The position numbers and the translations under genes are program-made. 64,000 nt of DNA from an uncultured delta proteobacterium (GTDB lineage Bacteria; Desulfobacterota; Desulfobacteria; Desulfobacterales; B30-G6), in the NCBI GenBank assembly GCA_963701385.1, contig CAVOZW010000017.1:1481-65480 (forward strand), in the 5' to 3' direction. Positions 20,870-45,702 of this stretch are shown in pieces (position 1 is the stretch's first letter; every line of letters starts with the position of its first letter). The notes beneath the pieces were generated by a model that worked only from the letters and a program-made list of their open reading frames with translations, did not search any database and had not been told where the DNA came from.

Positions 20870-22762
20870 TTATTTAAATTCTCGTATATCCTGGCGGGTG
20901 AGTTTAACGCCTTCAACTGGATTTCTATCGCCAGTTCGCCACATTTTTTCCGGCAGGGTAATACCTAAATTGTCAGCGGCAGCTTTTGAAATCAGGCCGG
21001 TTTCATCGTCAATCACATCTTTCAGGCGCCACACCCAGAATGTGCCTTTGTATGTTTTAATTCTATCCTCACCGGATAAATCGGGATCGCCGCTTTCGGT
21101 TAAAACCTTTCCAAAATTAACCAAATATTTTACTTCATCCCTTCCTGCTTTATTTGTGACGCGATGGAATATTTGCCCGTTGCTATCAACCAGGGGAGAC
21201 CCATTGAAAAATTTGAATTTTGTTTTCCCGCTAACGATAACCTGGTCGATAATTGATATTAGGTTATCCAGCGAAGATCCAGCACGATTTATCGCTGCTT
21301 CATCGTCAATAATACTATTTAACTTATTTATTTTTGGTTTTCTCTTTTTCTTTAGTTGAATGATTTTTTTGTTGTTCGCTTTAATACTGTTTATGTTGTC
21401 CTGAATTTTGCGTTTTTTGGAGCGATCTCCTTTGTCTCTATTGATTTCATCGCGGCGTGTTTGCGTGTCATTTTCAAGCAAATCGATTTTGGTGTTAATT
21501 TCATTAATCTCATTCTCGAGCTGACTACGAGAAAGATAGAGATCCCGTTTGTTAATAATCTTGTTATAATTGGAATAATCATCAAACAAAAATGCGCCTG
21601 GCCCCGGCCCATTTGCTTGTATTTTGTATAGCCCTTTTTCGCAAGGATCGTCTGAACCATTGTTAAAAATATATTTTTGTTGGCAATTAATTTTATCACC
21701 TAGCTTGAATACCATCCATACGTGGCCTTTGCTTGCGCAGGTGTATATTGTTCCATCTTCCTCATTTAGCGCAAGCTCATAAAAATCTTTTGCCTTCCAA
21801 CGATGTTGGTCAGGATCGTTAGCAAGGTCAAAGGTGTCTTGAAAATCATTTATTTCATTGAAGACGCCGCCACTATAGCTGAGCAATGTAAAAAAGTTAC
21901 CGTATCCATTTGGCTTTTTGTATTCGCCATCAACTACAAAACCATCCGCGTTACGTTTTTCTCGCAGTTCGCCTGTTGGCGCTGCAAGCATTGAGCGGCT
22001 TGTGCCGGAGGCGGCAGTGTAATATTGGTTATAGTTCAACCAGTATGCGAAAAAAATCCCGGTAAGTGTTGAGCATACGGATGCGCCGTAATCACCTTCG
22101 TTACCAGTTGCGGAGACCATCAGTTTTTTGTTTTTTCCCTTTACTTTTAAGTGCCAGCCATCGGGATCGTCACTGCGAAAAGCGCCATCTTTATATCGTT
22201 CTATTCCTCTCCCATAAACAAGATTATGTTGCCATTCCATGAACTTTTCGAATTTTGTGTACTTTTTTACTCTTCTGAAAATAAATTTCAATTTTTGGTC
22301 TTCAGTGGTGGAGCCGTTTAATTCATGAGAAAGTGCTATCTCAATCTGGCTCAGATGCACATCTCCGCTCATGTTAGGTAATTCGATTGGTATTGTTATT
22401 TGCGGAAGTTTTAAAATTTTCCTCTGTAGTTTTCGGTACTCGTATTTACACTCAATTTTCAGGCAAGCGATAACGGAACCATCATCCGTGAAATTGCCAA
22501 ACTGATCAAACGAATACGTGATACCTTTGTGAATCAGTTTAGAATTGTCCTCATCAAGTTCATATTTTCGTTGTACTGGCCGACCAATCGCCTTGGCCTT
22601 TAGCTGGATTTCGTTTTCGACACTCGGGCTATCCTGTTTGATCTTTAGAGTGACGTCTCTAGTTGTGATTTTTACTGTTATCACGTCGCCTGAGTAACAG
22701 TGTGGATCCGTTCCGCTGACACGGTTTGGTAGTTTCCATACAACTTTATTGGCCATCTTCAC
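20870..22762 (-). CDS. Hypothetical large protein, candidate T6SS cargo (possible Cys/His hydrolase core plus Lys-rich coiled coil)
   Basis: 630 aa from AT-rich DNA. Candidate nucleophile context GDYGASVCSTLTGIFFAYW and a downstream CASKGHVWMVF. Lys/Asn-rich helical stretch ENEINEINTKIDLLEND...KKKRKPKINKL. Confidence 0.4.
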   Translation of the reverse strand: MKMANKVVWKLPNRVSGTDPHCYSGDVITVKITTRDVTLKIKQDSPSVENEIQLKAKAIGRPVQRKYELDEDNSKLIHKGITYSFDQFGNFTDDGSVIACLKIECKYEYRKLQRKILKLPQITIPIELPNMSGDVHLSQIEIALSHELNGSTTEDQKLKFIFRRVKKYTKFEKFMEWQHNLVYGRGIERYKDGAFRSDDPDGWHLKVKGKNKKLMVSATGNEGDYGASVCSTLTGIFFAYWLNYNQYYTAASGTSRSMLAAPTGELREKRNADGFVVDGEYKKPNGYGNFFTLLSYSGGVFNEINDFQDTFDLANDPDQHRWKAKDFYELALNEEDGTIYTCASKGHVWMVFKLGDKINCQQKYIFNNGSDDPCEKGLYKIQANGPGPGAFLFDDYSNYNKIINKRDLYLSRSQLENEINEINTKIDLLENDTQTRRDEINRDKGDRSKKRKIQDNINSIKANNKKIIQLKKKRKPKINKLNSIIDDEAAINRAGSSLDNLISIIDQVIVSGKTKFKFFNGSPLVDSNGQIFHRVTNKAGRDEVKYLVNFGKVLTESGDPDLSGEDRIKTYKGTFWVWRLKDVIDDETGLISKAAADNLGITLPEKMWRTGDRNPVEGVKLTRQDIREFK

Positions 22763-24200
22763 CCTCCTGCGATCGGTTAAGGGTGATTATTTCGGGGTCA
22801 TATACTGATGATGTCGAGGCAATATCAAATTTGCCGAGTCTGGTTTCGATGGTATACATTTCTGACGGTAGCATGTCTTTAATGATTGTACCATTATCAT
22901 TTGTTTTCCCATTCGCGACAGTGGCACCTTCGCTATCAATGATGGAATAGTCGAGTTCTGCTAGCGGTTTATCAAGTTCATCGACAAGCACGGCGGAAAC
23001 ACATTGAAAAATCGCGAAGTGGGTCCGGCTTCCGGTTAAATAAAGTGGAATATCGATGGGAATTTCACCGCTAAAGGCTTCTTCGTTCTCTTTTAAAACG
23101 ATCTCGGTTGTTTCCTCATCACTGGTCGCATCTGTGTCATCGACTTGATCCTCATCAAAGTCATCGGCCTTATCAGCGTTATCATATATGTCAGCCTCAT
23201 CTAATTCTTCACTGGCTGCTGATAATTTTGAAGTTTGCGTGTGAGGCGTCGTCGATGCCGCAGTCTGTACTTCTACTGTCGTCGCGCTTTCCATGTTTAG
23301 GCTCGGCAGTTCATTTTCTACGACCGGGATCACTTCGAGTAATTGCTCAAATTCCACGTACACCTTACCTGGCGGAATATCATCCAGTTTAATCAGGCCT
23401 TCTGCATCGGTTTTGCCCTTGATTTCCTGGTCGTCTGCCAAATACAGGATGTATGGTTCGTCTGCCAGTGGTTTGTTTAGTCCATTTGTTAACAATATTT
23501 CAATATTGTCCTGAAACTTCAGTAGCCCAGATTCCTGCTTATCACCAAATATCTTACCATGGAAATCAATCAGAAAGAAGTATTCAGGGGGATTATAATT
23601 TTCTCCATACTTCTCTTTTTCTTCCTGAGTAGGTATCTCATCTATATCTTCATGATATTCGTATTCCCACTCTGCCTCTATCTTTTTATTCTGCACCCGG
23701 CATGGAAATTTGGTAATGAAATCGTGGGCACCTTCCTGATCGTATTCATAGATAAGAACCATAACCTCTGTTTCATCCGGAAGATTTTCAACATCAGCAC
23801 TAAGCTTTACAATATCGCCCCGCCTTGCTTCCTTCTGCCCCCACTTTTGATGAGTCACCTCAACCGACGGGATGATCCTGACCGGCGCCGATGTCAATTC
23901 CAGACCGTGATCGGGCAGCTTCGCCGTAAAAGAAAGTTCTTCTTTAGCTTTCTGAGTAATGACAACGAAACCAGCAAAATGATCTCCAAAAACGATCCCT
24001 TTGACTTTTTCAATTATTTTGCCTTTTTTGTCTTCGACCTTTATTTCGATTTTGGAACCGTTGCCCACAAAATGGGTCATCACATCAAATGCGATCTTCT
24101 CATTTACAAATGCCATGCCGCTTTGCCAACTGGCGTGCGTGATTTTCGAATCGAGCGTGATCGTCTGGACTTCGTCCGTTTTTTTTTGATATTCCTTCAT
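22746..24200 (-). CDS. Multi-module protein paralogous to the PAAR C-terminal extension
   Basis: 484 aa. It shares WGQKEARRGDIVKLSADVE with the PAAR protein (WSQDEARVGDVVKLTAEVE). It also shares IEAEWEYEYHED...PEYFF and LKFQDNIEILL...PYILYLADDQEIKGKTDAEG...PPGKVYVEF with ORF 27344-27751. Contains an acidic linker. Confidence 0.5.
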   Translation of the reverse strand: MKEYQKKTDEVQTITLDSKITHASWQSGMAFVNEKIAFDVMTHFVGNGSKIEIKVEDKKGKIIEKVKGIVFGDHFAGFVVITQKAKEELSFTAKLPDHGLELTSAPVRIIPSVEVTHQKWGQKEARRGDIVKLSADVENLPDETEVMVLIYEYDQEGAHDFITKFPCRVQNKKIEAEWEYEYHEDIDEIPTQEEKEKYGENYNPPEYFFLIDFHGKIFGDKQESGLLKFQDNIEILLTNGLNKPLADEPYILYLADDQEIKGKTDAEGLIKLDDIPPGKVYVEFEQLLEVIPVVENELPSLNMESATTVEVQTAASTTPHTQTSKLSAASEELDEADIYDNADKADDFDEDQVDDTDATSDEETTEIVLKENEEAFSGEIPIDIPLYLTGSRTHFAIFQCVSAVLVDELDKPLAELDYSIIDSEGATVANGKTNDNGTIIKDMLPSEMYTIETRLGKFDIASTSSVYDPEIITLNRSQEGEDGQ

Positions 24201-24253
24201 ACTATTCGAATCATTTTCATCGGCACGAATATTTCGTTGCCAGGACGAGGTCG

Positions 24254-26248
24254 CTAAACATCCAGTTTCTTAGCCTGGTAGCCACTATAGGCTGATGTAA
24301 AAAAATTGTGCACATAGGCTTCGAAGTTCTTATCGCCCACGATCTCGTTGATCATGGCATCATCTCCCGGGTTTTGCTTTTTCAATTCGATCATCAAGGG
24401 GTGTTCTTTGACTTTTTTTAATTCGATAAAAAAATCATAATAGTCCGATACCCATTTGTTCTTGGATGGGTCATTTTTCTTAAACTCTGTTTTCATCGCA
24501 GCGAGGTAACGTTTCTCTTCGATGGATTTATAATCGAATATCCCCTCGCACAGTGCGCCGATGAGCGAAACGGCTATACCCACTCCCACGAGAATAGCAC
24601 CGAGCGGTGCAAATGGTGTTAACATCAAAACCGAACCTCCCAAAACAAGCCCTTTTCCCGCGTATGCAACTACAGAATAGGCGTACTTTTTGCCATCACC
24701 GGTATCAGCTGCAGCATACATATCGTAGATCGAGATTCCCCAATCTGCTGCTGCCCCAGCAACTCCAGCCGCCTTAGAAACGACAGCTCCTTTTGGGATT
24801 CGATTATTTATTACAGGGATATCCATGATATCCGTTGTTACACCATAAATTGCAGTAGCCTTATCGATGGTGTCACGATTGTTCTTGCTCTCCTTTTGCA
24901 ATGCTGCAAGAAGTGATATGGCCGACACACCAGCTTTAATGCCGCCTTTGATATTGTCCGGTACAGGATTTGTTTGTTTCTCGAAAAAGCCATCCACATT
25001 TACTGGTGTCCCGTGAATGAGAGAACGATCTAACTCCTGTTGCAGCTCACCGTAGTCGGTAATAATCCCTTTCGCTTCGAGAAAATAGCAGACGCCTTTG
25101 AAATCTGTGCTGAGTGATCTAAGCTTTGAAGCTAATTGATAATTTCTGGCTTCAGCCACGATTTTTAACATATTCTGTATGTTACCAATCCACTTGGCCT
25201 TTTCTTCTGCTTTCTTTATGGCACTTTTGGCCTTGCCTTTAGCCGAGTCTTCGACCAGCTTTTTAAACTGCTCTTTGTACAAAGAACGGGAGGTATATGT
25301 TCCCGTTTGAAAAAAGGAAATTAGCGCATCATCGTAGATCTTGATGATTTCATCAGTGGGTATGAAAGTGGAACTCGAATTTCGTTTTTCCCAATCCGTT
25401 ATCTTGTATTGATAATTGTGGATTTGAGATCGAAAGATCGCATCGAGGATGGCGACCGGCATCTGAATCCTTTTTTTGTATCTTCGGGTTTCGCCTTCTA
25501 TAAAATTAGTCAATACCCTTCTCGTTTCCTCTACACAAGCTACATTGATAATCGTGCTTTCAATGTTGTCGGAGTAAAATATTTTATCCCCCGTAGATAT
25601 CCTTCCTTTTACTCGTCGTTCTTTTTTGTGCGCCCTTAATGATAGTGATATCTGGATATGGCGTCCACGCCCCTTCACCACATTATGGGCCTGATCAAGA
25701 AGGCACGCACAAGCCATGGCTTTACCGATACAATTGTGATACGCCTTAGTCGTTTTCGTCAATATTTTAGTGTAGTGCTTCAGTCTCTCAATATAGATAT
25801 CGATTGGACAACACAGAAAAATCGCCTTATTATCTTTGTTGATGAAGCCACGAAATGCAAGGTTGTGCTTATTCAGATAATCAACGTTTACCGATTTGGC
25901 AGTCACATATTTGAAAGGCCAGACAAACAAGCATATTTCTTGATCTGAAGAAAAGGTAACAGGTTGATATCTATATTTATAGTGTTTTTTCATTATCCAG
26001 GGATGCATGAGCTGAGAGACCATGAATTTCTTGTTTTTAAATTGCAGGTCTGAATCGCACGTATACATGATCCCCTTGTTGTCTGTCCTGGCAACTCCTC
26101 CGAAAATTTTGCCCATGTTGACAAAATCATTTTTAGTATATGCATAGACAACCCACTGGTTCGTTATCGGGACTGGAAGACGTTTCCCCTTACGAACGAA
26201 AGACTCACCTGCATAGAACAATTTCGGTTTTATCGCTTGGCCTGCCAT
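24254..26248 (-). CDS. Hypothetical large protein with C-terminal glycine-zipper/TM segments, candidate membrane-targeting cargo
   Basis: 664 aa. C-terminal AAGVAGAAADWGISIY and VVAYAGKGLVLGGSVLMLTPFAPLGAILVGVGIAVSLIGALC. I recognise no catalytic motif. Confidence 0.4.
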   Translation of the reverse strand: MAGQAIKPKLFYAGESFVRKGKRLPVPITNQWVVYAYTKNDFVNMGKIFGGVARTDNKGIMYTCDSDLQFKNKKFMVSQLMHPWIMKKHYKYRYQPVTFSSDQEICLFVWPFKYVTAKSVNVDYLNKHNLAFRGFINKDNKAIFLCCPIDIYIERLKHYTKILTKTTKAYHNCIGKAMACACLLDQAHNVVKGRGRHIQISLSLRAHKKERRVKGRISTGDKIFYSDNIESTIINVACVEETRRVLTNFIEGETRRYKKRIQMPVAILDAIFRSQIHNYQYKITDWEKRNSSSTFIPTDEIIKIYDDALISFFQTGTYTSRSLYKEQFKKLVEDSAKGKAKSAIKKAEEKAKWIGNIQNMLKIVAEARNYQLASKLRSLSTDFKGVCYFLEAKGIITDYGELQQELDRSLIHGTPVNVDGFFEKQTNPVPDNIKGGIKAGVSAISLLAALQKESKNNRDTIDKATAIYGVTTDIMDIPVINNRIPKGAVVSKAAGVAGAAADWGISIYDMYAAADTGDGKKYAYSVVAYAGKGLVLGGSVLMLTPFAPLGAILVGVGIAVSLIGALCEGIFDYKSIEEKRYLAAMKTEFKKNDPSKNKWVSDYYDFFIELKKVKEHPLMIELKKQNPGDDAMINEIVGDKNFEAYVHNFFTSAYSGYQAKKLDV

Positions 26249-26287
26249 GCTATTACAATATCATCCAAATTCTATTATCAGAACGTT

Positions 26288-26803
26288 TTACTCCTCATAA
26301 CCGTCTGCCTGTTCGGACTGCAATATCGCCTCGTCATCCGCATCGATATCCGGCTCCTGGTACAATTCATCTATTTCAGATGAAACAAATCCAGACTCGC
26401 TATAAGGCAATGCACCGTCAACAGATATATCTTGGTGCTTTGTGATTGGCCTCTTTTTATCCAGGTCCTCTTCTTCGATCAGCAATTCATGGAAAACGAT
26501 GAATCTGCCGAGGTCGTTTCCATCATTATCCTTATTCAAGTCATACTCTAAGCTATATTGTTTCCCTGGAATGACCCCGGAAAATTCCAAACGCAGATAT
26601 TTGTCATCGACTTTTTCGCTTTTTTCAGCCACCTTAATGGTCTTTTTGTACTTTTCATCAGATGACTCCAGAGTGGCTTCATCGTCATTAATGGCCGGAT
26701 CAATGTCATCCATCTCAATCAGGATATAGTAGGTTCCGCCCAAATAAAATTGATTTCGCTTACCACTTCTGGCTTTGCGCTTTTTGGTTTTATAGTTTTC
26801 CAT
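26288..26803 (-). CDS. Small acidic protein, paralog of the C-terminal domain of ORF 19943-20653
   Basis: 171 aa. See the alignment given for 19943-20653. Lies immediately upstream (39 nt) of the 664-aa gene. Confidence 0.5.
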   Translation of the reverse strand: MENYKTKKRKARSGKRNQFYLGGTYYILIEMDDIDPAINDDEATLESSDEKYKKTIKVAEKSEKVDDKYLRLEFSGVIPGKQYSLEYDLNKDNDGNDLGRFIVFHELLIEEEDLDKKRPITKHQDISVDGALPYSESGFVSSEIDELYQEPDIDADDEAILQSEQADGYEE

Positions 26804-26850
26804 TTTTCTAGTTAGCCAGTTTAAACATCATGTAATGTAGCTCACCCGCT

Positions 26851-27324
26851 TTATTGAGATGGTACATCAAAACTCATCAGTATCTTATCAACTTTTCCTC
26901 TTAGCATTTTCCACGTTTTTTTTGAAAATGTGGCATTGAGTATATAACCTGTGTTATTTCTCGTCAGGTAAATGGCTCGCTGGTAAACTTCCCTGTTATC
27001 AACCGGACACCACTTATAGACAATATCAACTCCTTGAATTCCACTTAAAAATGTGATCTTTCCCCGTTTCAGTTCCTGGTAGCCTTGCATTTCACCTTCC
27101 ACAGCCCTGATATTTTTAGCAGCATACTTTTCAAAATTCTGTTCGTCGATATTATTTTCGATCGTTACATAAATATTGTGGCGGATACCATCCTCTTCAG
27201 GACCTTCATAGCGGTATACCGACTGATCCTTCCAATCCGTTGGCAATCTTAAATTGAATCGGTTATTTAATATAATAAAAGCAGAGTTCTGATTGTTTTG
27301 GTCTGTTTTCTTCTTCTTGAACAT
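26851..27324 (-). CDS. DUF1795 (DcrB/Eag-family) T6SS effector chaperone-like protein
   Basis: 157 aa. The pattern FNLRLPTDWKDQSVYRYE...NIYVTIE...QGYQELKRGKITFLSGIQGVDIVYKW...YQRAIYL...YILNATFS...KILMSFDV matches the DUF1795 layout as I remember it. Lies directly downstream of the PAAR gene. Confidence 0.6.
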   Translation of the reverse strand: MFKKKKTDQNNQNSAFIILNNRFNLRLPTDWKDQSVYRYEGPEEDGIRHNIYVTIENNIDEQNFEKYAAKNIRAVEGEMQGYQELKRGKITFLSGIQGVDIVYKWCPVDNREVYQRAIYLTRNNTGYILNATFSKKTWKMLRGKVDKILMSFDVPSQ

Positions 27325-27343
27325 GCAGCACCGACTTGTTTTA

Positions 27344-27751
27344 TTAATCAGGTTGGTTGGCTATATTCGGAAACTTCACATCACAATTTCCGGGAGGAAC
27401 TTCTTCCTCTTTTCTATATCCATTTCCATCAAGCTTGCCTTTTCTAATTTCGCCGTTGGCTAGATACAGAATATATTCCTCATTTGGAATTGGATTATCC
27501 TCGTTGTCCAATAGCTCGATTTCAAGATAATCTTTGAACTCCAGAATATCCGACCTGGTCCTCTGGTTCTTAACTTTTACAAAGAAATAGTATTCCGGTG
27601 CCGAGTAGCCCTTTTTCTTGTCGGATTCTGAGTCCTCGTCCTCATCTTCGTGATATTCGTATTCCCATTCTGCTTCGACTTTGCCTCCGTCTACCTCTGG
27701 CTTCGATCTCCTCGATAAAATCGTCCGAACCAGTGATATCTCTGTTCCCAT
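27344..27751 (-). pseudogene. C-terminal extension module of the PAAR protein, detached by an in-frame TGA
   Basis: 135-aa ORF in the same frame as the PAAR ORF, separated only by TGA-AAT. Contains VEAEWEYEYHED...PEYYFF and LEFKDYLEIELL...EYILYLANGEIRKGKLDGNG...PPGNCDVKF modules homologous to ORF 22746-24200. Its first ~30 codons match the paralog better in another frame. Confidence 0.45.
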
Positions 27752-27754
27752 ATT

Positions 27755-28435
27755 TCAATCCTGGCGGTTGTTGCCATCCTCGAAACCTTCCACTTCTGCG
27801 GTCAGTTTAACCACATCGCCGACCCTGGCCTCGTCTTGCGACCACTTGGCGTTATAAACCGCGAAAAGCTTGACCGTGTAATCACCTTCGTCCGGCAGCC
27901 CGCTTCGTTTGATGCGGCCGTCGCCGGTCAGGATTCCTTTGGAAGTATTCCCACCCGGGTCGGTCAATTCGTACTCGACTTCGGTGATCGGGTTGCCGGC
28001 CGAATCCACGAACTGGCAGTCGATCCAGTGGGGTCCTTCTTTTTCGGGGCCTGGCTCGCCCACCAAAGCGGAGTAGGCGCTGGCCTTGGCAGCCGCTGCA
28101 GCACCGCCGCCCCCGCCACCACCGCCGCCCCCGCCAGTCTCGCCAATCAGGACCGTCATGCAGCCCAGGACGATGGCGTCGGGCGGGCCGGTGCAGACGG
28201 CCATGTCGCCCATACGGGCTGCCGGCATACCACCGATGAGAACCCCGGCGCTCCCCAGGGATATGGGCCCACCCACATGGGGCACCGGTGCGGGTGCCGG
28301 CGTCACCATGGGGCACACATGCATATCGCCGAGTCGCGCCGCCGGCATGCCACCAATGAGCACGGTGGGGCATCCGGCCACGATAGTGCCGCCATGGGCG
28401 GTCATGTCGCCGATTCTGGCCGCGGGTTTACCCAA
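27755..28435 (-). CDS. PAAR-domain protein (T6SS spike tip) with a poly-Gly linker and beta-sandwich-like extension
   Basis: TTG start with GGAGG 5 nt upstream. Three PAAR motifs (PAARIGD, PAARLGD, PAARMGD), then a G11A5 linker. The C-terminal module ends WSQDEARVGDVVKLTAEVEGFEDGNN. Confidence 0.9.
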   Translation of the reverse strand: MGKPAARIGDMTAHGGTIVAGCPTVLIGGMPAARLGDMHVCPMVTPAPAPVPHVGGPISLGSAGVLIGGMPAARMGDMAVCTGPPDAIVLGCMTVLIGETGGGGGGGGGGGAAAAAKASAYSALVGEPGPEKEGPHWIDCQFVDSAGNPITEVEYELTDPGGNTSKGILTGDGRIKRSGLPDEGDYTVKLFAVYNAKWSQDEARVGDVVKLTAEVEGFEDGNNRQD

Positions 28436-28554
28436 TGATTCCTCCCTGAAAAATTATTATTTTTTGAATTCTGAATGAATGTATTCTATGCATTGTAGAA
28501 AATAGCCATCTCGCCAACTCAAAACGAAAAACTTACAATTCACAATTGCCCTGC

Positions 28555-30771
28555 CTAGTTGATCATCACAATCGCTCCGGATATGGTCGTCTTGGCACCA
28601 CCCTTGAGCTCCGCCATGGTACTGCCCTCGACCTTGGCCGACAGGCCGCCCTTGGCTTCCATATTCATGCCGCCCTCGATCTTGGCGTCCATGTCGGCCT
28701 TGATCTCAACATTCATGGCCTTGAGCGAGATTTCGTTGGCCTCCAATGCGATTTTGCCGCTGGACGCCGTAATGTTGATATCCCCGCCCGACTCAATGGT
28801 GATGGTGGAGCCCGCATCCAGCTTGACGATGTTGCCGCCGGCATCCTCGATGGTCACGTTGTCGTTGTCGTCGTCCAGGGTGATGTGGTGGCCGCTGCTG
28901 CTGGCCAAACTAATTTTCTTTTGATCGTCGTCCAGGATGGCGCTGTGACCCTCTGTTGTGGTCAATTCTATTTTCTTGTTCTCGTCGTCAAACAGGAATT
29001 TGTGGCCGTCCGTGGTCTGGGTGGTGATCTTTTTGTTCTCGTCGTCAATCTCCAGCGTGTGCCCGTTGGTCGAGCTCAGCACGATCTTCTTGTTCTCGTC
29101 GTCGAACAGCAGCTTGTGGGCGTTGGTGGTCTCGATGGCGATCAGCTTGTTTTTATCGTCCATGGACACTTTGTGCTGGTCGCGGGTTTCGATGGTCAGG
29201 ATCTGCTCTTTTTCATCCATGGTCAGCTTGTGGCCGTAGGCGTTCAACAACACCACCCGGGTTTCCTTGGATTTGTCTTCCATCAGCAGTTCGTTAAACG
29301 ACCCGCCTCCCGGGGTGGTCTGCGAACGCAGGGCGCTCTTGGTCTTTTGGTCCGGCAGCTTGTAGGGCGGCGTGTTGGTGCCGTGATAAACCCGGCCGGT
29401 GATCAGGGGTTTGTCCGGGTCCCCTTCCAGAAAGTCCACCACCACCTCCTGGTCGACGCGTGGGATGTGCATGGCGCCCCATCCGGCCCCGGCCCAGATC
29501 TGACTGACGCGGATCCAGCAGGAGCTTTTTTCGTTTTTCTTCCCCACACGGTCCCAGTGGAATTGCACTTTCACACGACCGTGTTCATCCGTGTAGATCT
29601 CTTCGCCGGCAGGCCCCACTACGATGGCTGTCTGGATGCCCTGAACAATGGGCTTGGGGGTTTTGCGCAGGGGCCGGTAAACCACGTCGGAAGGGATGCC
29701 GCTGAACTTGTTGCTGTAGCTGAATCCCTCTGTACCGGCCTGCTCTTCCAGCACCTGGGGCTGGGATCCGAAATGGCTGATGTCGGTTAACAAATACTCC
29801 TTTTCAAAACTGCTCAGATCGTGCCCTTCCAGCTTGAAGGTAAATCCGGGAACCAGGCGCGGGCAGTTGCTCTGTCCTTCAACGCTTTCCAAAAAGACAC
29901 GGCCCTCGTCCAGACGGATGTTGGCCAGGGCATCTCCGCGAGCATCTTCGATGTAGTCGCCCGGATAGTCGTACTGCTCGATCTCGGTATGGGTATTGGC
30001 TTCCTTGTGCCGCAGCAGCTTGGCCGAGGGTTTCAGAAAATTGAAATCTTTGAGGGACACCTTTCCCGTGGATATTTGGCGCGAGTGCGCCACAGTCTGG
30101 ATGGTTTCCTTGGTGACCACCATACCGGCCCCCGTCCGGACCGCGATTTCCACCTGATTGTCGTCATTTTTCTCACCCTGGATAGGCCGGTAGATACCGG
30201 CACTGTCGGCAAAGACCAGCAGGTGATTTTCCTCGTCGTGCTCGAAAAAGTAGAAAATGCCTTCCGCCTCTGCCAAACGGGAAATAAAATTCAAATCGGT
30301 TTCGCGGTACTGGACACAATAGTCCATTTTTTCGTAGCTACCCTGCAACCGGAATTCGAATCGGTCCGAAGTGATGCCGGCTTCGGTCAGAACCTCCTCG
30401 ATAATTCCTTTGACGTCCTTTTCCTGGAATATGCGGCAGTCCTGCGCCAGGGAGAGCAGCCAGAGGGTCGGTACCAGTGTGGCTTTGTACAGAAAAAATC
30501 GCCTGGTGCTGCCGGTTTGCCAGAATTTATTGACGATGCCGTGAAAGTGACGCTCCGAATCCGTTTTGAGGCCAAAGATCGATAGCAGACCGATTTCACC
30601 GACGACATCGTCAAAGGTCACTTCCACCTCGTCATCGCGTGTGGCCAGTGTGAGATCGACTTCAAACGGTGTGGAGATGTCCTCTCTGGCTGAAAAAGCC
30701 ACGACCCGGAGTTGCCGCCCGCCGGCCTTGAATAGAAAGCTCTCCTCGTCCGCCGATCTGAAATCAGCCAT
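28555..30771 (-). CDS. vgrG: VgrG (TssI) spike protein
   Basis: gp27/gp5-like sequence: FHGIVNKFWQTGS, YCVQYRETDLNFISRLAEAEGIFYFFEH, VKVQFHWDR, WIRVSQIWAG. C-terminal beta-helix repeats. ATG at 30771 with GGAGGA upstream is preferred over the track's TTG at 30783. Confidence 0.93.
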   Translation of the reverse strand: MADFRSADEESFLFKAGGRQLRVVAFSAREDISTPFEVDLTLATRDDEVEVTFDDVVGEIGLLSIFGLKTDSERHFHGIVNKFWQTGSTRRFFLYKATLVPTLWLLSLAQDCRIFQEKDVKGIIEEVLTEAGITSDRFEFRLQGSYEKMDYCVQYRETDLNFISRLAEAEGIFYFFEHDEENHLLVFADSAGIYRPIQGEKNDDNQVEIAVRTGAGMVVTKETIQTVAHSRQISTGKVSLKDFNFLKPSAKLLRHKEANTHTEIEQYDYPGDYIEDARGDALANIRLDEGRVFLESVEGQSNCPRLVPGFTFKLEGHDLSSFEKEYLLTDISHFGSQPQVLEEQAGTEGFSYSNKFSGIPSDVVYRPLRKTPKPIVQGIQTAIVVGPAGEEIYTDEHGRVKVQFHWDRVGKKNEKSSCWIRVSQIWAGAGWGAMHIPRVDQEVVVDFLEGDPDKPLITGRVYHGTNTPPYKLPDQKTKSALRSQTTPGGGSFNELLMEDKSKETRVVLLNAYGHKLTMDEKEQILTIETRDQHKVSMDDKNKLIAIETTNAHKLLFDDENKKIVLSSTNGHTLEIDDENKKITTQTTDGHKFLFDDENKKIELTTTEGHSAILDDDQKKISLASSSGHHITLDDDNDNVTIEDAGGNIVKLDAGSTITIESGGDINITASSGKIALEANEISLKAMNVEIKADMDAKIEGGMNMEAKGGLSAKVEGSTMAELKGGAKTTISGAIVMIN
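28860..29240 (-). repeat. Coding ~57-nt (19-aa) tandem periodicity of the VgrG C-terminal beta-helix
   Basis: Successive repeat units: HKLLFDDENKKIVLSSTNG, HTLEIDDENKKITTQTTDG, HKFLFDDENKKIELTTTEG, HSAILDDDQKKISLASSSG, HHITLDDDNDNVTIEDAGG. Confidence 0.75.
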
Positions 30772-30772
30772 G

Positions 30773-33403
30773 TTATCCTCCAAAATCTATCGTAAACATG
30801 CCGTCCTCATTCAGATCCAGGTTGATCTGCGACGGCATTTCACCCTCGCTCATGCAACTCAGGATCTCCTGGGACATGCGTGGCATGATGCTGCCGCTCA
30901 TGATGTAATCGATATTCCTGGCACCGGTTTCAACCTCGGTGCAGCGAGCCGCGATCTGTTCCACCACCGCCGGAGAATAGACCAGCTTCATCTTATGGTT
31001 TTCGGCCAGTCTTCTGACCAGCTTTTCCATTTTGAGGGCCACGATCTCCTTGAGGACATCGGTCTTTAACGTCAGGTAGGGAATCAGGTTCATGCGTGCC
31101 AGAAGGGCGGGTTTGAAATGGTTGCTCAATATGGGACGGATGGCTGCGCTGATGCTTTCCAACGGCGGAACTTCATCACCGGAGCACATTTCCGTGATCA
31201 CATCGGTGGCCAGGTTGCTGGTCAGGAAAATGACCGTGTTCTTGAAATCGATCAGCCGGCCCTCGCCATCGGAGAGCATGCCTTTGTCGAAAACCTGGTA
31301 AAACAGGTTCATCACCTCCAGGTGCCCTTTCTCCACTTCGTCGATGAGCACGACCGAATAAGGCCGTTGACGAACGGCTTCCGTGAGGACACCCCCCTCA
31401 CCATAGCCCACATACCCGGGCGGCGATCCGATCAAGCGGCTGACGGTGTGTTTCTCCTGGAACTCGCTCATGTTAATGGTCACCATAAAATTTTCGCCGC
31501 CAAACAGGAGGTCGGCCACCGCCAGGCCGGTTTCGGTCTTGCCCACGCCGCTGGGACCGGCCAGCATGAACACACCCATGGGCTGATTGGGATCCTTAAC
31601 CCCGGCCTTGGCAGCCTTGATCACCCGGGTGAGACTATCCAGGGCCCCATCCTGGCCCTTGATGCGTGCTTTCAAATTCTCCCCCAGATTGATGATGCCC
31701 TTGGCCTCGTCCTTCATTACTTTCCCGAGGGGTATTCCCGTCCAGTCGGAGACCACCTTGGAAACAACGTCCGGATCCACTTCCGTGCGCACCAGCGGTG
31801 AATCACCTTGGATCCGCTGCAGGTCTTCCACCGCCGCGTTCAGTTCCGCTTTCAGGTCCGCCGCCGTCTCCCCCTCCGCCGCAGGCTTTTGCCCTGCTTC
31901 GTAAAGTCGCTGCCGAATCTCAATCACCTTTTGGGCCGCGGCCTGCTCTTCCAGCCAGCGCTCTTTGAGCGAATCAACCTCCTGGTTAAGTTTATCCAGT
32001 TCGGTCTGGGTCTCCTGGGTGCGCTCTTTATCGATCTCCATTCCGTGAAGCGCGTCGCGCTCGAGGGCCTTCTGCTCGCGCTGGAGCGCCTGCATACGGC
32101 GCTCCTTGTCTTCGATCACATCGGGTTTGGCGGTCAACAGCACCTTTACCCGCGCCGCACTGGTATCCAGCAGATCGACGGCCTTGTCCGGTAGCTGACG
32201 CCCGGAGATGTAGCGGCTGGAGAGCTCGGCCGCAGCCACGATGGCATCATCACGCACCACCACGCTATGGGCGGCCTCGTACTTGCTCTTTAGACCCCGC
32301 AGAATCAGCGTGGCAATCTCTTCGGACGGTTCGTCCAGTTTGACCAGCTGGAATCGGCGTGCCAGGGCCGCATCTTTCTCAAAATATTTCTTGTATTCCG
32401 ACCATGTGGTGGCAGCCACGGTGCGCAGCTCGCCGCGCGCCAGGGCCGGCTTTAGCAAGTTGGCCGCGTCAGACATCCCAGCGGCTCCTCCGGCGCCGAT
32501 CAGTGTGTGGGCCTCGTCGATAAAAAGAATGATCGGTTTTTCGGATGCCTTGATCTCGTTGATCACCGACTTCAGACGATTTTCAAACTCGCCCTTCATG
32601 CCGGCCCCGGCCTGGAGCAGCCCCATGTCCAGTCCCAGAATCGACACGTCGTGCAGCAACTCGGGAACGTCTCCCTCAACAACGCGCAAAGCCAGCCCTT
32701 CCACAACCGCCGTCTTGCCCACCCCAGCCTCGCCCACCACGATGGGGTTGTTTTTGCGCCGGCGGGCCAGGATATCCACCATCTGGCGGATTTCACGATC
32801 GCGCCCGAACACGGGGTCGATCTCCCCGGCCGCGGCCTTAGCCGTAAAGTTGTCGCAAAATTGGTTCAGGGCCGTTCCCTCGCCGGCTGTCACAGCTTCG
32901 CGCTGCTCGGTCGCAACGACCGAGGGCTTTTCCGTCGATCCTTTGACCGAATCCCAGAATTGAGACCTTAGCGCATCCCGGCTGATGGCCTCAAGAATGT
33001 CAACATAATCCCCGGTGGCGAACTGGGTAGGCCTGTTCAGGAATGCCAGCAGCAGGGCCCCGGAGCGCACCCGGGTCTCTTTTAAATCGACGGATCCCAC
33101 CAGCCAGCCCTCCTGGAATAACTCCATTAAAACCGGGGAAAAAACCGGTTTGGCAGCATTGCCGGTCTTGAATTCCTCCAGGGAGCGGTCGATGGCCTTC
33201 TGCAGGCGACCGGCATCAATGTCGAAATGGCGCAGGATCAACGGAAGATCTGACCGGGCGTCCTCCAACAGCTTGGAAAGCAGGTGTTCGATGGTCACTT
33301 CGTAATGGGTGCGTGATACGCATAGTCCGGCGGCTGCTTCAAGCGATCGGGTGCAATGGGTGTTCAACCGGCCTAACAGGGACTTGATGTCGACCGAAAT
33401 CAT
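30773..33403 (-). CDS. clpV: ClpV (TssH) AAA+ ATPase
   Basis: 876 aa. Walker A motifs GEAGVGKTAVVEGLA and GPSGVGKTETGLAVA. Walker B motifs ILFIDEAH and VVLIDEVEK. ClpV-type N-domain. Confidence 0.93.
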   Translation of the reverse strand: MISVDIKSLLGRLNTHCTRSLEAAAGLCVSRTHYEVTIEHLLSKLLEDARSDLPLILRHFDIDAGRLQKAIDRSLEEFKTGNAAKPVFSPVLMELFQEGWLVGSVDLKETRVRSGALLLAFLNRPTQFATGDYVDILEAISRDALRSQFWDSVKGSTEKPSVVATEQREAVTAGEGTALNQFCDNFTAKAAAGEIDPVFGRDREIRQMVDILARRRKNNPIVVGEAGVGKTAVVEGLALRVVEGDVPELLHDVSILGLDMGLLQAGAGMKGEFENRLKSVINEIKASEKPIILFIDEAHTLIGAGGAAGMSDAANLLKPALARGELRTVAATTWSEYKKYFEKDAALARRFQLVKLDEPSEEIATLILRGLKSKYEAAHSVVVRDDAIVAAAELSSRYISGRQLPDKAVDLLDTSAARVKVLLTAKPDVIEDKERRMQALQREQKALERDALHGMEIDKERTQETQTELDKLNQEVDSLKERWLEEQAAAQKVIEIRQRLYEAGQKPAAEGETAADLKAELNAAVEDLQRIQGDSPLVRTEVDPDVVSKVVSDWTGIPLGKVMKDEAKGIINLGENLKARIKGQDGALDSLTRVIKAAKAGVKDPNQPMGVFMLAGPSGVGKTETGLAVADLLFGGENFMVTINMSEFQEKHTVSRLIGSPPGYVGYGEGGVLTEAVRQRPYSVVLIDEVEKGHLEVMNLFYQVFDKGMLSDGEGRLIDFKNTVIFLTSNLATDVITEMCSGDEVPPLESISAAIRPILSNHFKPALLARMNLIPYLTLKTDVLKEIVALKMEKLVRRLAENHKMKLVYSPAVVEQIAARCTEVETGARNIDYIMSGSIMPRMSQEILSCMSEGEMPSQINLDLNEDGMFTIDFGG

Positions 33404-41475: not shown

Positions 41476-42222
41476 TCAGGGTTCTTCAACATCCGCCAAC
41501 GACCATAGACGTGTGAAATCCCCCGCATTGAGCGAACGCTTATACAGGGCCAACGCGAGCCGCTCCGGAATGCCACCCATGAACAGGGCGTTGGGCGTTT
41601 CAATCCCTTGGTCCGCAAGCAAGGCACCCCAAACCTGGACTGCGCTGGTGGGATCCGCTGCGCTGCATCCATCCAGGGCTAGCCATAACTCCCCGTTGTC
41701 GGTTAATTGAAGAGCCTTTTGCCTGGCAGTCTGTTTCTCCTGCAGTCCTGTTTCCTGTGCTGGTTTAGGGCCCCGCTCATTAGGAGCCGGATTTGGAAGA
41801 TTACCCACCTCAACTTCCAATTGGTTTAGATGATCGAAGCGTCGTGACGAAATATGCTCCATCTGATTCCAGACCGAGCTAAGCGCTTGAAACAGAGACG
41901 CCCACCCGTTTTCCCAGCCTTTGATGACACCGCTTCCCATGACCAGGAGTGGGTAAGGCCTGCCGATGCCGTCACTGCTGTCTTTCAGGAGACCGCAAAG
42001 CAACTCCCCTTTCCTGGTCCCCCTGGACCAGAATCGCCAGGATGATTGACCGAATGCCTTTTTGTTGCTGCCGGTAAAGTCCCGGTACCCCCTTTCCACC
42101 CATTCGCTGAAGGCCTTCATCAAAGGGGTTGCCACCCGAAATGCAAAATAGTCCTTAGCCGCAGGGTGCTTACCGCAGGCCGCCCATTTCCAATCGATTT
42201 TCGGTTTTAGGAGTCCCAGCAT
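41476..42222 (-). CDS. tagF: TagF-like (DUF2094) T6SS-associated protein
   Basis: 248 aa. The N-terminal WAACGKHPAAKDYFAF resembles the TagF G(K)xPxxxDF signature. Located between tssM and tssA. Confidence 0.6.
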   Translation of the reverse strand: MLGLLKPKIDWKWAACGKHPAAKDYFAFRVATPLMKAFSEWVERGYRDFTGSNKKAFGQSSWRFWSRGTRKGELLCGLLKDSSDGIGRPYPLLVMGSGVIKGWENGWASLFQALSSVWNQMEHISSRRFDHLNQLEVEVGNLPNPAPNERGPKPAQETGLQEKQTARQKALQLTDNGELWLALDGCSAADPTSAVQVWGALLADQGIETPNALFMGGIPERLALALYKRSLNAGDFTRLWSLADVEEP

Positions 42223-45200
42223 CTCACTATTATCTGTGGTACCTTACCCGGGGCCGACCGCAGTAGTTTTAAAACCGGTTCATGCCCTTGCAGCTTGTAC
42301 CTCACCGTTATGTAATTAACCCCAATTCTTTTTAAGGCCTGCGCTTCCTTAGGAAATTCTTTGGGGAAGAACACCCGCTTGCCCCTCTCAAAATCTTTTA
42401 GAAATTCCGGGAATGCATCGAATCCTTGATATTTTTTGGTGAGAAGAATATCGCCGACCTCGATTTTAAACGTCACGTCACCACACGATTGGGGCGAATA
42501 TTGAAATGTTTTACTGACGGGGTAATTCTGATTAACCAACTGGACCTTGCTATCGGCACACTGCAATTCCACTAATGTTAAATGGGGTTTGACTTCGGCG
42601 TCCCGATTGGCGCCAGTCGGTTCGGCATTGATGGTCACTTTGTAATTATTTTTAACATATTTGGCTGATTTGGCACCTTTGGTCAAATATACAAGAAAGT
42701 CTTTTTCGAAATCGACCTGCCGGCCGTGCACCTTTTTAGCGTAGTAGCCTTTCTCTACACTGCGATTGATAAACGGTTTTGCCGGGCCATTGATAAACTT
42801 GAGCGCCAGGCCTCCCTCTCCCATCAATGTCTGATTCATGTTGCTGCTATCGGACATATCCTGAAGTTCCACCAGCGTATCCTGTTCCCAGATCTCCTGT
42901 AGGCGGCAGGCTGTTTCCTCGAGTACGTAGCGGTAGAAATAGTCTTTGGGGCCGGCTATCAGGTGCCAGATGGTTTTAGACTCCTTATCAGTGGTTTTGA
43001 GTATCGAACTCAGATTGTCCAGTGAATTGTCAGCCACGTAGTAGGGAATTTTGCTGGTGGCGGCATCATCGCTGAAAATGTCTGCAGCAGCCTGATAGGC
43101 CACCGCCCGCGATGAGTAGGCCGGCTTCAATTCTTCGATGGCTGTTTGATATGCAGCAATAATTTTTCCCGCCAGCAGTCTTTTTTCAATGCTAAGAGTG
43201 CCCGCTGCCTTGTCGCCTAAAGCTTTTTCGGCCTTTTCAATCCTTTTGCCCACCGATTTGACCGCTTTTTTCAGAATGCCGCTTTTCTTAGACTCGCTTT
43301 CGGCAACTATTCTGGCTTGTTGACGAATCGCTTTGAAATCGTCCACCAGAGCTGTCCAAGCCGGTCTATCCTGACCCTCCAAAATCGGTTCCAGCTCCCG
43401 CGACATGCGGCTGAGCAGTCCGAAATAAGGTCCTTCGTCCGTGGCCATGCGTATGCCGGCTTCCTGAAACTGCTCCGGCAAGCTCATCTTGTCGGGTGCG
43501 TTCAGAAAAGCCGCCGCAAAGGTGTGCCAATATCGAAAATAACTGTCGGAGTACCAGGTTTGAAATGCGGCTTTCTGGTTAGCGATCAGCAGGGGATCAA
43601 ACAAAGCCGCCTCGATTTCACCCAAAAAGGCATCGATTCCAACTTTGCCCTGGACATTAAAGGCAGGGGGTACGAAGAGATCGTGGGCACCCCCCAGTTC
43701 CGCGCCCCAGAATTCGGCCATGGTCGTGGCCGTATAGCCAGGATCAGCATTTATCCAATCGGCCAGCCAGTTGAGCTTGACCCCCTTTAAAGTCAAGACA
43801 TACTTTAACCAGTTCTGCAGATCGGCCATCTCCTGATTGAGGCCGCTGGTATCCTGCTGCCACAGCAGATAGTAAAGGTTCAGCTTAGAAATTTGCTCAA
43901 CCATCTCGGGTAAAAGGCTTTGATCCCTATCATCGTCCGCCAGGTTGAACGTCGGCTGAGAATGGACCTTCAGCGATGTCAGCGATTCGCCCGCCATCCT
44001 GGCCTTGAGCAGGTTGATTCGCTTCACCAGGTAGGCCACGTGGCTGCCGATTACGGCCTGGGGGGTGGCCGCGGAAAACTGGGTCAGCGAATCGGTCATC
44101 TTTTTCTCTAGGGGGGTCAGAAAGCCGCTTCGAAACTGGGTGCAATATTTCTGTTTCAACGCACCCTCAATATCACGGCTCTGATGGAGACCGAACCGGG
44201 GAATCCACCACCGACTGTTCTGCGTTTCCACCCTCGATACAGCCTGTTGGAACCGGTCCATGATGACGATATCGCTCAGGAGGTCTCCCTGCAGAACCGG
44301 AGCCTGCGACAGTTCATTGGAAACATCTCTCAGCGTCTTCAGGTTTTTTACAAACGAAAAACTCAACAGCCCGCAAAGGGCGATGATGATCGCTACCCAG
44401 GAGGTCAAGCCCAAATTGCGGGTCAAATGTTTCCATTCGATGGCCCGCTGGGTCAGCGAAAAGAGACCCCTGTCCCCGGGCAATATACGTGCAAAAAAAT
44501 CATGTAGAAATAGCCCTTTACTGCTGGCCGTAAGAACTTCTTTCTCATCGATCAAGCCCAGGTCTTTTAGAAAATGCGAATAGGGCGTGCCCTCCTGGCG
44601 GCCACTGCTGAAAAAGATACCTCTGAAATTGGGTGTTTCCTGGTAGGGATTTTCCTGGAAGGTGCCTTTTATAAACGCACCGAGGCCGTCTTTTATCTTT
44701 TCAAATTCCTCGGGAAATATCAGCAGACTCGGGTCAATTCCTTGGGGATCCGGTTTTTCGAACAGGAGCAGCCGAATCTCACGCAACCTGTCGCCAATGG
44801 TACTGACGGTCTTTTTAACAACTGCATCGGTATCGTTGGATCCGTCAGTATTGACGACACCCATGGCCTGCGCATGCATTTTCTCGGTCAGACGATCACA
44901 AAACTGGATGGTCCCTTGAATGAGATCACATTTGGTCACCAGAACATATACGGGAAATGTCGCTCCCAGGACGCGGGACAATTCATCGATGCGACGACGA
45001 ATGCTTTTGCCCGCAGCATCGAGATCCTCGTCGGAAGCGCTCAGGAGCTTGTCGGCGGCGACGGTGACAACCAGACCGTTCAGGGGTTCCTTTTTCCTGA
45101 ATTTTGTCAAAAGGGTTAAAAATTGTTGCCATTCATCTTTATCGCGCCCTTCATCCACCGGAATGGCATACCGACCTGCCGTATCAATGATTATCGCCTG

Positions 45201-45455
45201 CTCGAAAAACCACCAGTCGCAGTTGCGAGTGCCTGATATGCCGGAGGTGCGACTGATTTCAGCAAATGGAGATGACAGATTGGCACTTTTTATGGCGGTT
45301 GTTTTTCCAGATCCGCTTTCACCGACGATCATATACCAGGGCAGTACATATAAGGGATTGCCGCGTTTCTTGAGGCTGGAATGTCGCAGGGCCGCCATGG
45401 CCTCCTTCCAGCGATCCTGCAGTTCCTGTGACTTCTGTTTTATCTTTCTTGTCAA
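42207..45455 (-). CDS. tssM: TssM (IcmF) membrane-complex protein, lacking the N-terminal TM hairpin in this frame
   Basis: 1082 aa. LYVLPWYMIVGESGSGKTTAIKSA (Walker A), a third TM segment LTSWVAIIIALCGLLSFSFV, and a long periplasmic domain. The frame opens only 3 codons upstream of a TTG at 45455, after a TGA at 45462-45464. Confidence 0.9.
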   Translation of the reverse strand: MTRKIKQKSQELQDRWKEAMAALRHSSLKKRGNPLYVLPWYMIVGESGSGKTTAIKSANLSSPFAEISRTSGISGTRNCDWWFFEQAIIIDTAGRYAIPVDEGRDKDEWQQFLTLLTKFRKKEPLNGLVVTVAADKLLSASDEDLDAAGKSIRRRIDELSRVLGATFPVYVLVTKCDLIQGTIQFCDRLTEKMHAQAMGVVNTDGSNDTDAVVKKTVSTIGDRLREIRLLLFEKPDPQGIDPSLLIFPEEFEKIKDGLGAFIKGTFQENPYQETPNFRGIFFSSGRQEGTPYSHFLKDLGLIDEKEVLTASSKGLFLHDFFARILPGDRGLFSLTQRAIEWKHLTRNLGLTSWVAIIIALCGLLSFSFVKNLKTLRDVSNELSQAPVLQGDLLSDIVIMDRFQQAVSRVETQNSRWWIPRFGLHQSRDIEGALKQKYCTQFRSGFLTPLEKKMTDSLTQFSAATPQAVIGSHVAYLVKRINLLKARMAGESLTSLKVHSQPTFNLADDDRDQSLLPEMVEQISKLNLYYLLWQQDTSGLNQEMADLQNWLKYVLTLKGVKLNWLADWINADPGYTATTMAEFWGAELGGAHDLFVPPAFNVQGKVGIDAFLGEIEAALFDPLLIANQKAAFQTWYSDSYFRYWHTFAAAFLNAPDKMSLPEQFQEAGIRMATDEGPYFGLLSRMSRELEPILEGQDRPAWTALVDDFKAIRQQARIVAESESKKSGILKKAVKSVGKRIEKAEKALGDKAAGTLSIEKRLLAGKIIAAYQTAIEELKPAYSSRAVAYQAAADIFSDDAATSKIPYYVADNSLDNLSSILKTTDKESKTIWHLIAGPKDYFYRYVLEETACRLQEIWEQDTLVELQDMSDSSNMNQTLMGEGGLALKFINGPAKPFINRSVEKGYYAKKVHGRQVDFEKDFLVYLTKGAKSAKYVKNNYKVTINAEPTGANRDAEVKPHLTLVELQCADSKVQLVNQNYPVSKTFQYSPQSCGDVTFKIEVGDILLTKKYQGFDAFPEFLKDFERGKRVFFPKEFPKEAQALKRIGVNYITVRYKLQGHEPVLKLLRSAPGKVPQIIVRCWDS

Positions 45456-45702
45456 GTGATCTCAGATAGGATTCGTCCTGTTCGATGACCTGATGCACAA
45501 AATTTTGCTCGCGTCGACGCAGCAACAATTTTCGGACAAGGACAATCACCAGGCAGATGCCCAGAATTCCCGTAAGAATAAAACAGCCTGTCCACCAGGG
45601 CCAATGCATAAGCAATACCCCCCCGAAGACCAAGGCAATGATGAGCGCCACACTGGTAATAATCAAAAACCACTTCAGCAATTTTAAAATGAGCTGCTTC
45701 AT
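45319..45702 (-). CDS. TssM N-terminal fragment (two TM helices) encoded in a different reading frame
   Basis: 127-aa ORF. It encodes WFLIITSVALIIALVFGGVLL and WWTGCFILTGILGICLVIVLV followed by RKLLLRRREQNFVHQVIEQDESYLRS. It then runs out of frame over the tssM 5' end (137-nt overlap). Starts directly after the tssL stop. Confidence 0.6.
   Translation of the reverse strand: MKQLILKLLKWFLIITSVALIIALVFGGVLLMHWPWWTGCFILTGILGICLVIVLVRKLLLRRREQNFVHQVIEQDESYLRSLDKKDKTEVTGTAGSLEGGHGGPATFQPQETRQSLICTALVYDRR

Follow-up and report, generated by a model that had tools for sequence, protein, structure and literature searches.

Introduction

Transthyretin-like domains carried on a VgrG have been described as an effector-binding adaptor (reviewed in PMC10433429), and the T6SS protein considered here is comparable in that its PAAR domain is followed by an extension made up of beta-sandwich domains of a similar general kind. 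It is unlike the solved PAAR spike tips, to whose PAAR chains its PDB sequence matches are confined (e.g., 8gra_J, "T6SS spike protein Paar", and 4jiw_D), in that a PDB sequence search turned up no solved or named relative for its extension, which is built of three beta-sandwich domains in tandem and has an acidic loop, and in that its gene is interrupted in the contig analyzed.

The interruption itself invites comparison with two further situations. The first is +1 frameshifting of the prfB type, with which the locus shares an in-frame stop and a continuation in another frame. This likeness is, however, superficial: the locus has no conserved shift site, no slippery codon combined with a stop and no upstream SD-like stimulator at the right spacing, it would require three shifts instead of one, and its orthologues are unshifted. 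The second is error in sequence assembly. Typical long-read errors are errors in homopolymer length, and a consensus may also fail by SNP doubling, although our literature search found no explicit description of SNP doubling in consensus calling. Residual indels and truncated ORFs are a recognised quality issue of long-read MAGs (PMC9262707), and the present locus is like the indel errors of long-read or hybrid metagenome assemblies in that isolated 1-nt indels split conserved genes and are missing from short-read assemblies of the same population.

Here, we analyze this locus by comparison with its homologues, its syntenic orthologues and near-identical contigs, and we consider it likely that the split in the PAAR gene arose during consensus building or polishing, as an artefact at sites where co-assembled haplotypes differ by SNPs.

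Results and Discussion

Two Open Reading Frames in a Common Frame

The window, by which we mean the whole 64-kb stretch of DNA that was analyzed, carries the PAAR-extension gene on its minus strand at 27344..28435; as it stands, the gene measures 1092 nt, that is, 1089 nt plus 3 extra bases. It is written as two ORFs. ORF 1 (27755..28435, minus strand, 226 aa, TTG start) covers the PAAR domain and beta-sandwich 1, runs into beta-sandwich 2 and terminates near its start, at a TGA (27755..27757). ORF 2 (27344..27751, minus strand, 135 aa) begins with 20 out-of-frame residues (MGTEISLVRTILSRRSKPE...), and is true C-terminal family sequence from VDGGKVEAEW onward.

The original prediction had read the minus strand at this point as GAG GAT GGC AAC AAC CGC CAG GAT TGA AAT ATG GGA ACA and had placed the two ORFs in the same frame with the TGA between them, and both statements hold on translation, the TGA (27757-27755) and one AAT codon being all that separates the ORFs. 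Three-frame translation of the junction gives ...EVEGFEDGNNRQD*NMGTEISLVRTILSRRSKPEVDGGKVEAEWEYEYHED in frame 0, ...ATTARIEIWEQRYHW... in the second frame and ...LKYGNRDITGSDDFIEEIEARGRR in the third. The remaining sequence statements of the prediction are likewise accurate: the in-frame peptide after the stop fits the paralogue at 22746..24200 poorly, an alternative frame reads LKYGNRDITGSDDFIEEIEAR and, with one base dropped near 27694-27696, continues as VDGGKVEAEWEYEYHED, and the resulting identity to the paralogue is 17 of 27 residues by direct count on the translations.

The anatomy that had been built on these observations is another matter. That the junction contains frame changes stands, but alignment to homologues calls for three +1 shifts rather than two, and the two-shift model was dropped accordingly. 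The same alignment indicates that the "LKYGNR" part of the proposed peptide is not the homologous reading, and that what had been taken for a nonsense codon is an out-of-frame TGA within AGG ATT GAA (R I E), its bases falling in the intact frame within ATT GAA (Ile-Glu), which is exposed by the first extra base.

Relatives of the Gene Are Uninterrupted

The protein collection was queried with a protein stitched from the three frames, which was one residue too long, at a threshold of E <= 1e-5. More than 2500 matches were obtained, the best 120 of which are all uninterrupted, with lengths of ~340-445 aa (mostly 355-367 aa) and a query coverage of 92-100%; the top match (P0001) has 362 aa and is 89% identical. 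Whereas these homologues read as a single continuous ORF, the window as written offers 226 + 135 aa, and it fits the family consensus across the junction, EGFEDGTxAxxEIWEQDIxGADDFIxEIETxVDGGKVEAEWEYEY, only as four pieces. Syntenic orthologues point the same way, with one ORF each in three loci from JGI metagenomes (L001-L003, 81-85% nucleotide identity), in a 7.66-Mb contig of an uncultured Desulfosarcina MAG (L004) and in L005, and with 79-89% protein identity between the window gene and its counterparts in L001, L004 and L005. More broadly, MAGs assigned to Thermodesulfobacteriota, Ignavibacteria, Zixibacteria, Fibrobacterota, Bacteroidota and further groups also carry the family, and in every case the gene is a single ORF (~50 species MAGs).

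The suggestion that a longer PAAR-extension gene lies beneath both ORFs is therefore borne out, with an intact form of 362 aa in near-identical contigs and homologues. Two circumstances had been named that would have spoken for another reading. One was that orthologues would show two ORFs with a conserved stop and a conserved in-frame peptide, where nucleotide alignment instead shows one continuous ORF. The other was that a single uninterrupted ORF would emerge as the true sequence, and here the uninterrupted ORF is indeed present elsewhere (L006, L007 and the orthologues), with the comparative data pointing to an assembly error.

These comparisons also bear on whether the split could be functional, such that two genes cooperate, one for a short PAAR cap and the other for an adaptor fragment. 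ORF 2 does have an ATG with AGGA 7 nt upstream, and the extension has a PAAR-less paralogue that is encoded by a gene of its own at 22746-24200. However, the same split is absent from the best 120 of the >2500 homologues and from the ~50 species MAGs, and the predicted strands at residues 223-231 and 238-248, between which the break lies, belong to beta-sandwich domain 2, which means that both products would have incomplete domains as well as out-of-frame residues. We thus regard a functional split as extremely improbable.

The paralogue (22746..24200, minus strand, 484 aa) has beta-sandwich domains 2-3 in common with the intact protein (P0121), to which it aligns with 42% identity over 173 aa (BLASTP, E=5e-40), and this alignment continues through the junction without a break. 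The paralogue was also considered as a donor in gene conversion, and this was set aside, as the nucleotide similarity between the two amounts to one 33-nt stretch only.

Three Extra Bases within 78 Nucleotides

When the coding strand of the window is aligned with five of the relatives (L001, L004, L005, L006 and L007), it contains exactly three 1-nt insertions, all within 78 nt, and the lengths of all other gaps in the gene are divisible by 3. The first extra base is a C (coding strand) at 27773, where GG[C]A ACA stands against GGA ACA in L007 and L006, with the Gly alleles GGC and GGA in tandem, and it moves the reading from frame 0 to the third frame. The second is a G at 27742, where CA[G]A GAT stands against CAA GAT in L007 and CAG GAY in L001, L004 and L005, with the Gln alleles CAG and CAA in tandem. 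The third is an A at 27696, where AG[A]G GTA stands against AGG GTA in L007, with the Arg alleles AGA and AGG in tandem, and it takes the reading back to frame 0.

The insertion contexts relative to L007 (GG[C]AACA at 27773, CA[G]AGAT at 27742 and CCAG[A]GGT at 27696) have one property in common, which is that each extra base lies between codon positions 2 and 3, turning the codon into its synonymous alternative, with the L007 allele (A, A and G, respectively) coming next. At two of the three sites, the inserted allele is known in orthologues (GGC in L001; CAG in L001, L004 and L005), while the AGA allele of the third site is in none of the fetched loci. By a rough estimate, three random insertions would yield such synonymous-allele pairs at third-codon positions with a chance of ~1-3%.

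The correct path through the junction accordingly follows frame 0 to EGFEDG, the third frame for TTARIEIWEQ, the frame of the original prediction for DITGSDDFIEEIEAR and frame 0 again from VDGGKVEAEW. Deleting these three bases (27773, 27742 and 27696) yields a 362-aa protein that is 89% identical to P0001 at 100% coverage, and the restored stretch TTARIEIWEQ-DITGSDDFIEEIEAR-VDGGK fits the family consensus GTxAxxEIWEQDIxGADDFIxEIETxVDGGK. Because the shifts pass through both other frames and sum to +3, the two ORFs look as if they were in frame.

This sum is also what might recommend programmed recoding, by which either three +1 ribosomal shifts or read-through of the TGA would give the full-length protein, since it leaves both ORFs in a common frame. 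The sites themselves do not lend themselves to such a process: at GGC-A, CAG-A and AGA-G, the P-site tRNA could not re-pair in +1 and there is no hungry or stop codon, there is no homopolymer for transcriptional slippage at any of the three, and the orthologous and near-identical loci are continuous, none of them having shift sites. Read-through of the TGA alone would replace two conserved beta-strands by 26 unrelated residues, and nothing in the family alignment corresponds to the peptide that continues in frame past the stop, NMGTEISLVRTILSRRSKPE, whereas read-through or selenocysteine insertion would call for a conserved peptide there. An Rfam search of the junction returned nothing above noise and no SECIS-like RNA element, and the local RNA fold is unremarkable (z = -1.33). 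The recoding site that had been offered as one explanation of the junction is thus scarcely credible, given a single frame in all relatives, the three +1 events needed, the lack of an Rfam element and an ordinary fold.

A Strain-Variable Patch Surrounds the Insertions

Near-identical contigs were found by exact look-up of the downstream DcrB-family protein, which gave three others, and were confirmed with the 171-aa protein encoded nearby. One (L007) comes from the short reads of run ERR11523668, as assembled in Logan; it is 99.70% identical to the window over 4041 nt (window 29453..25413) and has an intact 362-aa gene. Another (L006) is ENA ERZ25039514 contig_28161 (303,671 bp), with an intact PAAR gene identical to that in L007; it matches the window exactly from 30052 to 24532 save for the same 11 differences. 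On the ERR12037370 contig, a 172-residue frame runs off the contig end and stops just before the DcrB gene and, judging from its position, should be the C-terminal part of the PAAR protein, spanning the junction. The three insertions are therefore missing from L007 and L006 and, judging by position, probably also from ERR12037370, that is, from assemblies independent of the window contig.

The distribution of the differences is highly uneven. Over the 4041 nt shared with L007, the window shows 9 mismatches and 3 gaps, of which 8 mismatches and all 3 gaps lie between 28061 and 27659, the sole difference outside being a mismatch at 29064. The clustering of 11 of the 12 differences in 403 of 4041 nt has a binomial P of ~1e-10, and it defines a strain-variable patch (27659..28061, minus strand, 403 nt) in which the window departs from L007 and L006 by 8 substitutions and all three insertions. 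Of the eight substitutions, six leave the amino acid unchanged (GTA/GTG, ATA/ATC, GGA/GGG, TTG/CTG, ATA/ATC and TAT/TAC; P = 0.004-0.011 for at least 6 of 8 under random change), which argues that the patch represents a naturally occurring allele under selection rather than noise; A219E, one of the two replacements, restores a family-conserved Glu.

The broken form of the gene is far less well represented. Its two ORFs (P0122 and P0124) are on record in NCBI/ENA from a single 338,748-bp contig only, presumably that from which the window derives, and exact look-ups of both found no other contig on record. An intact version of the allele carried by the window (E219/T223) does not occur among ~15 billion catalogued proteins by exact look-up, and searches for exact patterns in species genomes and in JGI metagenomes yielded neither allele form.

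Taken with the allele pairs described above, these data suggest how the split may have arisen. In the consensus-artefact reading that we favor, the locus would be one gene for a 362-residue T6SS spike-tip protein in which a Gly/Ala linker joins a PAAR domain to three beta-sandwich domains, and the consensus would have been built from reads of two co-occurring haplotypes that are ~11 mostly synonymous SNPs apart in a 400-nt patch, the second haplotype presumably being an intact form as well. At the eight substitution sites (28061, 27986, 27950, 27931, 27780, 27768, 27714 and 27659), this second haplotype would carry GTG, ATC, GGG, CTG, GAG, ACC, ATC and TAC, respectively. At three of the SNPs between the haplotypes, both alleles would have been emitted side by side, the SNP being rendered as an insertion plus a match, whereas the organism would make one full-length protein without any recoding. 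From the sequence comparisons, we infer that the extra bases are consensus errors and not real mutations, and that the source is a long-read or hybrid assembly. The PAAR insertions are unlike typical long-read errors in that they lie outside homopolymers, at SNP positions of the patch, and this coincidence points to haplotype mixing rather than to base-calling.

Divergence between strains is also visible further along the cluster. Between the window and L006, which are otherwise mostly near-identical over 17 kb, there are dense, mostly third-position substitutions at ~33400-31700 (minus strand), in the N-terminal half of clpV, and this pattern looks like a mosaic of the recombination type between co-occurring strains.

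A Second Frameshift and a Possible Inactivation

Elsewhere, long intact ORFs fill the 64-kb window densely, and a codon-score frame-switch screen identified one other break, in tssM (IcmF-like; 42207-45702, minus strand). Here, a +1 frameshift lies between 45461 and ~45425: an N-terminal piece (MKQLILK...), which has two hydrophobic helices, is read in one frame and the remaining 1082 aa in the adjacent one, and neither frame contains a stop over 45461..45321; the span 45702..42207 measures 3496 nt, one base more than 3495. This surplus base probably belongs to the A-run at 45441-45438, and in this respect the tssM insertion, unlike those in the PAAR gene, is probably a typical long-read error. 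In ERR12037370, a near-identical short-read assembly with an identical TssL and equal lengths of the neighbouring genes, tssM is a single gene of 1164 aa. The absence of the tssM insertion from this assembly indicates that the window contig carries sporadic insertion errors, and in total the contig has at least four single-base insertions that are missing from independent assemblies. In addition, L006 contains many 1-nt indels, which fragment tssF, clpV, vgrG and downstream genes of the effector region, and its PAAR gene is nonetheless intact; being rich in errors and bearing a name of the "contig_N" kind, it shows that error-prone long-read-type assemblies of the same population exist.

The two broken genes can also be taken at face value, as a real and very recent inactivation in which the three insertions and the tssM +1 are genuine and the T6SS is being lost, leaving only a 226-aa PAAR protein with a truncated adaptor and, possibly, a non-functional 135-aa fragment. 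Two frameshifted genes in one T6SS cluster would fit such a loss, as would the intact PAAR domain of ORF 1, the AGGA 7 nt upstream of the ORF 2 ATG, from which the fragment could be translated, and the high quality that the rest of the window appears to have. Against this stands the fact that the flanks match the intact copies (bar 29064 in L007), so that three independent indels would have had next to no time to accumulate within 78 nt, and that ORF 2 is without decay, its protein being identical to the intact copy from VDGGK onward (115 residues). Furthermore, no order of the three events has a functional intermediate, so that selection cannot explain the net +3, and all three insertions sit at third-codon positions where they mimic synonymous allele pairs, for which the rough estimate of chance given above applies. 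The recent decay that the original prediction had proposed as its other explanation thus fits poorly with the identical flanks, the third-codon positions and the presence of both synonymous alleles; we retain real inactivation as a rival reading, albeit an unlikely one.

The three insertions could have become real in a single step had a ~400-nt recombination heteroduplex between the two alleles been processed in an error-prone manner, with the bases of both strands left at three mismatches. We consider such an event very unlikely. If true, it would be a mutational signature new to description, and, together with the tssM frameshift, it would mean that the T6SS of this strain is switched off.

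Returning to the reading of the split as a consensus artefact, its practical consequence for annotation would be that the two ORFs are merged into one 362-aa PAAR-extension protein, and the two pieces of tssM into one 1164-aa protein. The case also calls for caution, since an in-frame stop combined with homology in an alternative frame may mimic recoding or a fresh pseudogene where consensus errors occur at strain-variable sites of a metagenome. Comparison with near-identical short-read contigs offers a fast resolution of such patterns.

The Intact Protein and Its T6SS Context

The PAAR domain (PAAR_motif, PF05488) is recognised by Pfam at E=7.7e-25 and 87.4 bits against a cut-off of 27, in three matched stretches corresponding to PAAR repeats. 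The AlphaFold model of the intact protein is all-beta over residues 132-355, with a pLDDT of ~90, and Foldseek returned only generic tandem macroglobulin/Ig-like matches for the extension, with low TM-scores. We infer that the intact protein is the PAAR cap for the VgrG spike and, by analogy with the adaptor domains carried on a VgrG, its extension probably recruits cargo encoded downstream. The family that has this extension is widespread in Desulfobacterota, Ignavibacteria, Zixibacteria, Fibrobacterota and others.

The N-terminus reads MGKPAARIGDMTAHGG (28435-28406, minus strand), in which AARxxDxxxH is contiguous with the PAAR domain and is followed by no transmembrane segment; we take AARxxDxxxH to be the "prePAAR" motif of Eag-dependent effectors. 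The gene starts with TTG in all close loci. GC content falls steeply along the gene, starting at 0.68-0.71 over the PAAR domain and linker and reaching 0.37-0.42 at the 3' end, and it does so in the window (0.68 to 0.38) as well as in L001, L004, L005 and L007. A recombination or horizontal-transfer junction, which such a drop could signify, was ruled out, as the gradient is common to all orthologues; this distribution instead indicates an effect of amino-acid composition, with a Gly/Ala/Pro-rich PAAR part and a Lys/Glu/Asn-rich extension.

The gene belongs to a complete T6SS cluster on the minus strand, which contains tssJ, tssK, tssL (DotU), tssM, tagF, tssA, tssB/C, hcp, tssE, tssF, tssG, clpV, vgrG and PAAR. 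The vgrG spike gene, partner of the PAAR tip, is directly upstream (28555..30783, minus strand) and is syntenic with Phage_GPD/Phage_base_V genes in L001 and L004 (85% nucleotide identity, no gaps), and it is in turn preceded by clpV (30773..33403, minus strand). The order clpV-vgrG-PAAR is common to L001, L004, L006 and the window, and the clpV-vgrG alignment (4.9 kb) is without any gap.

Directly downstream lies a gene for a 157-aa DcrB-family protein (PF08786, Pfam E=1.4e-12; 26851..27324, minus strand), a putative Eag-type T6SS chaperone. PF08786 is the former DUF1795, the family of Eag chaperones. This gene follows the PAAR gene in all fetched loci in which the downstream gene was read (L001-L008), and its conserved position points in the same direction as a cargo-recruiting extension.

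Beyond the DcrB gene (20870-26803, minus strand) are ORFs of 171, 664, 484 (the PAAR-less paralogue) and 630 aa, none of which has a significant Pfam effector match. The 664-aa ORF has a hydrophobic, Gly/Ala-rich C-terminal segment, and the 484-aa paralogue has a long acidic linker. The genes that lie beyond the DcrB gene vary between L001, L004 and L005, as in swappable effector modules.
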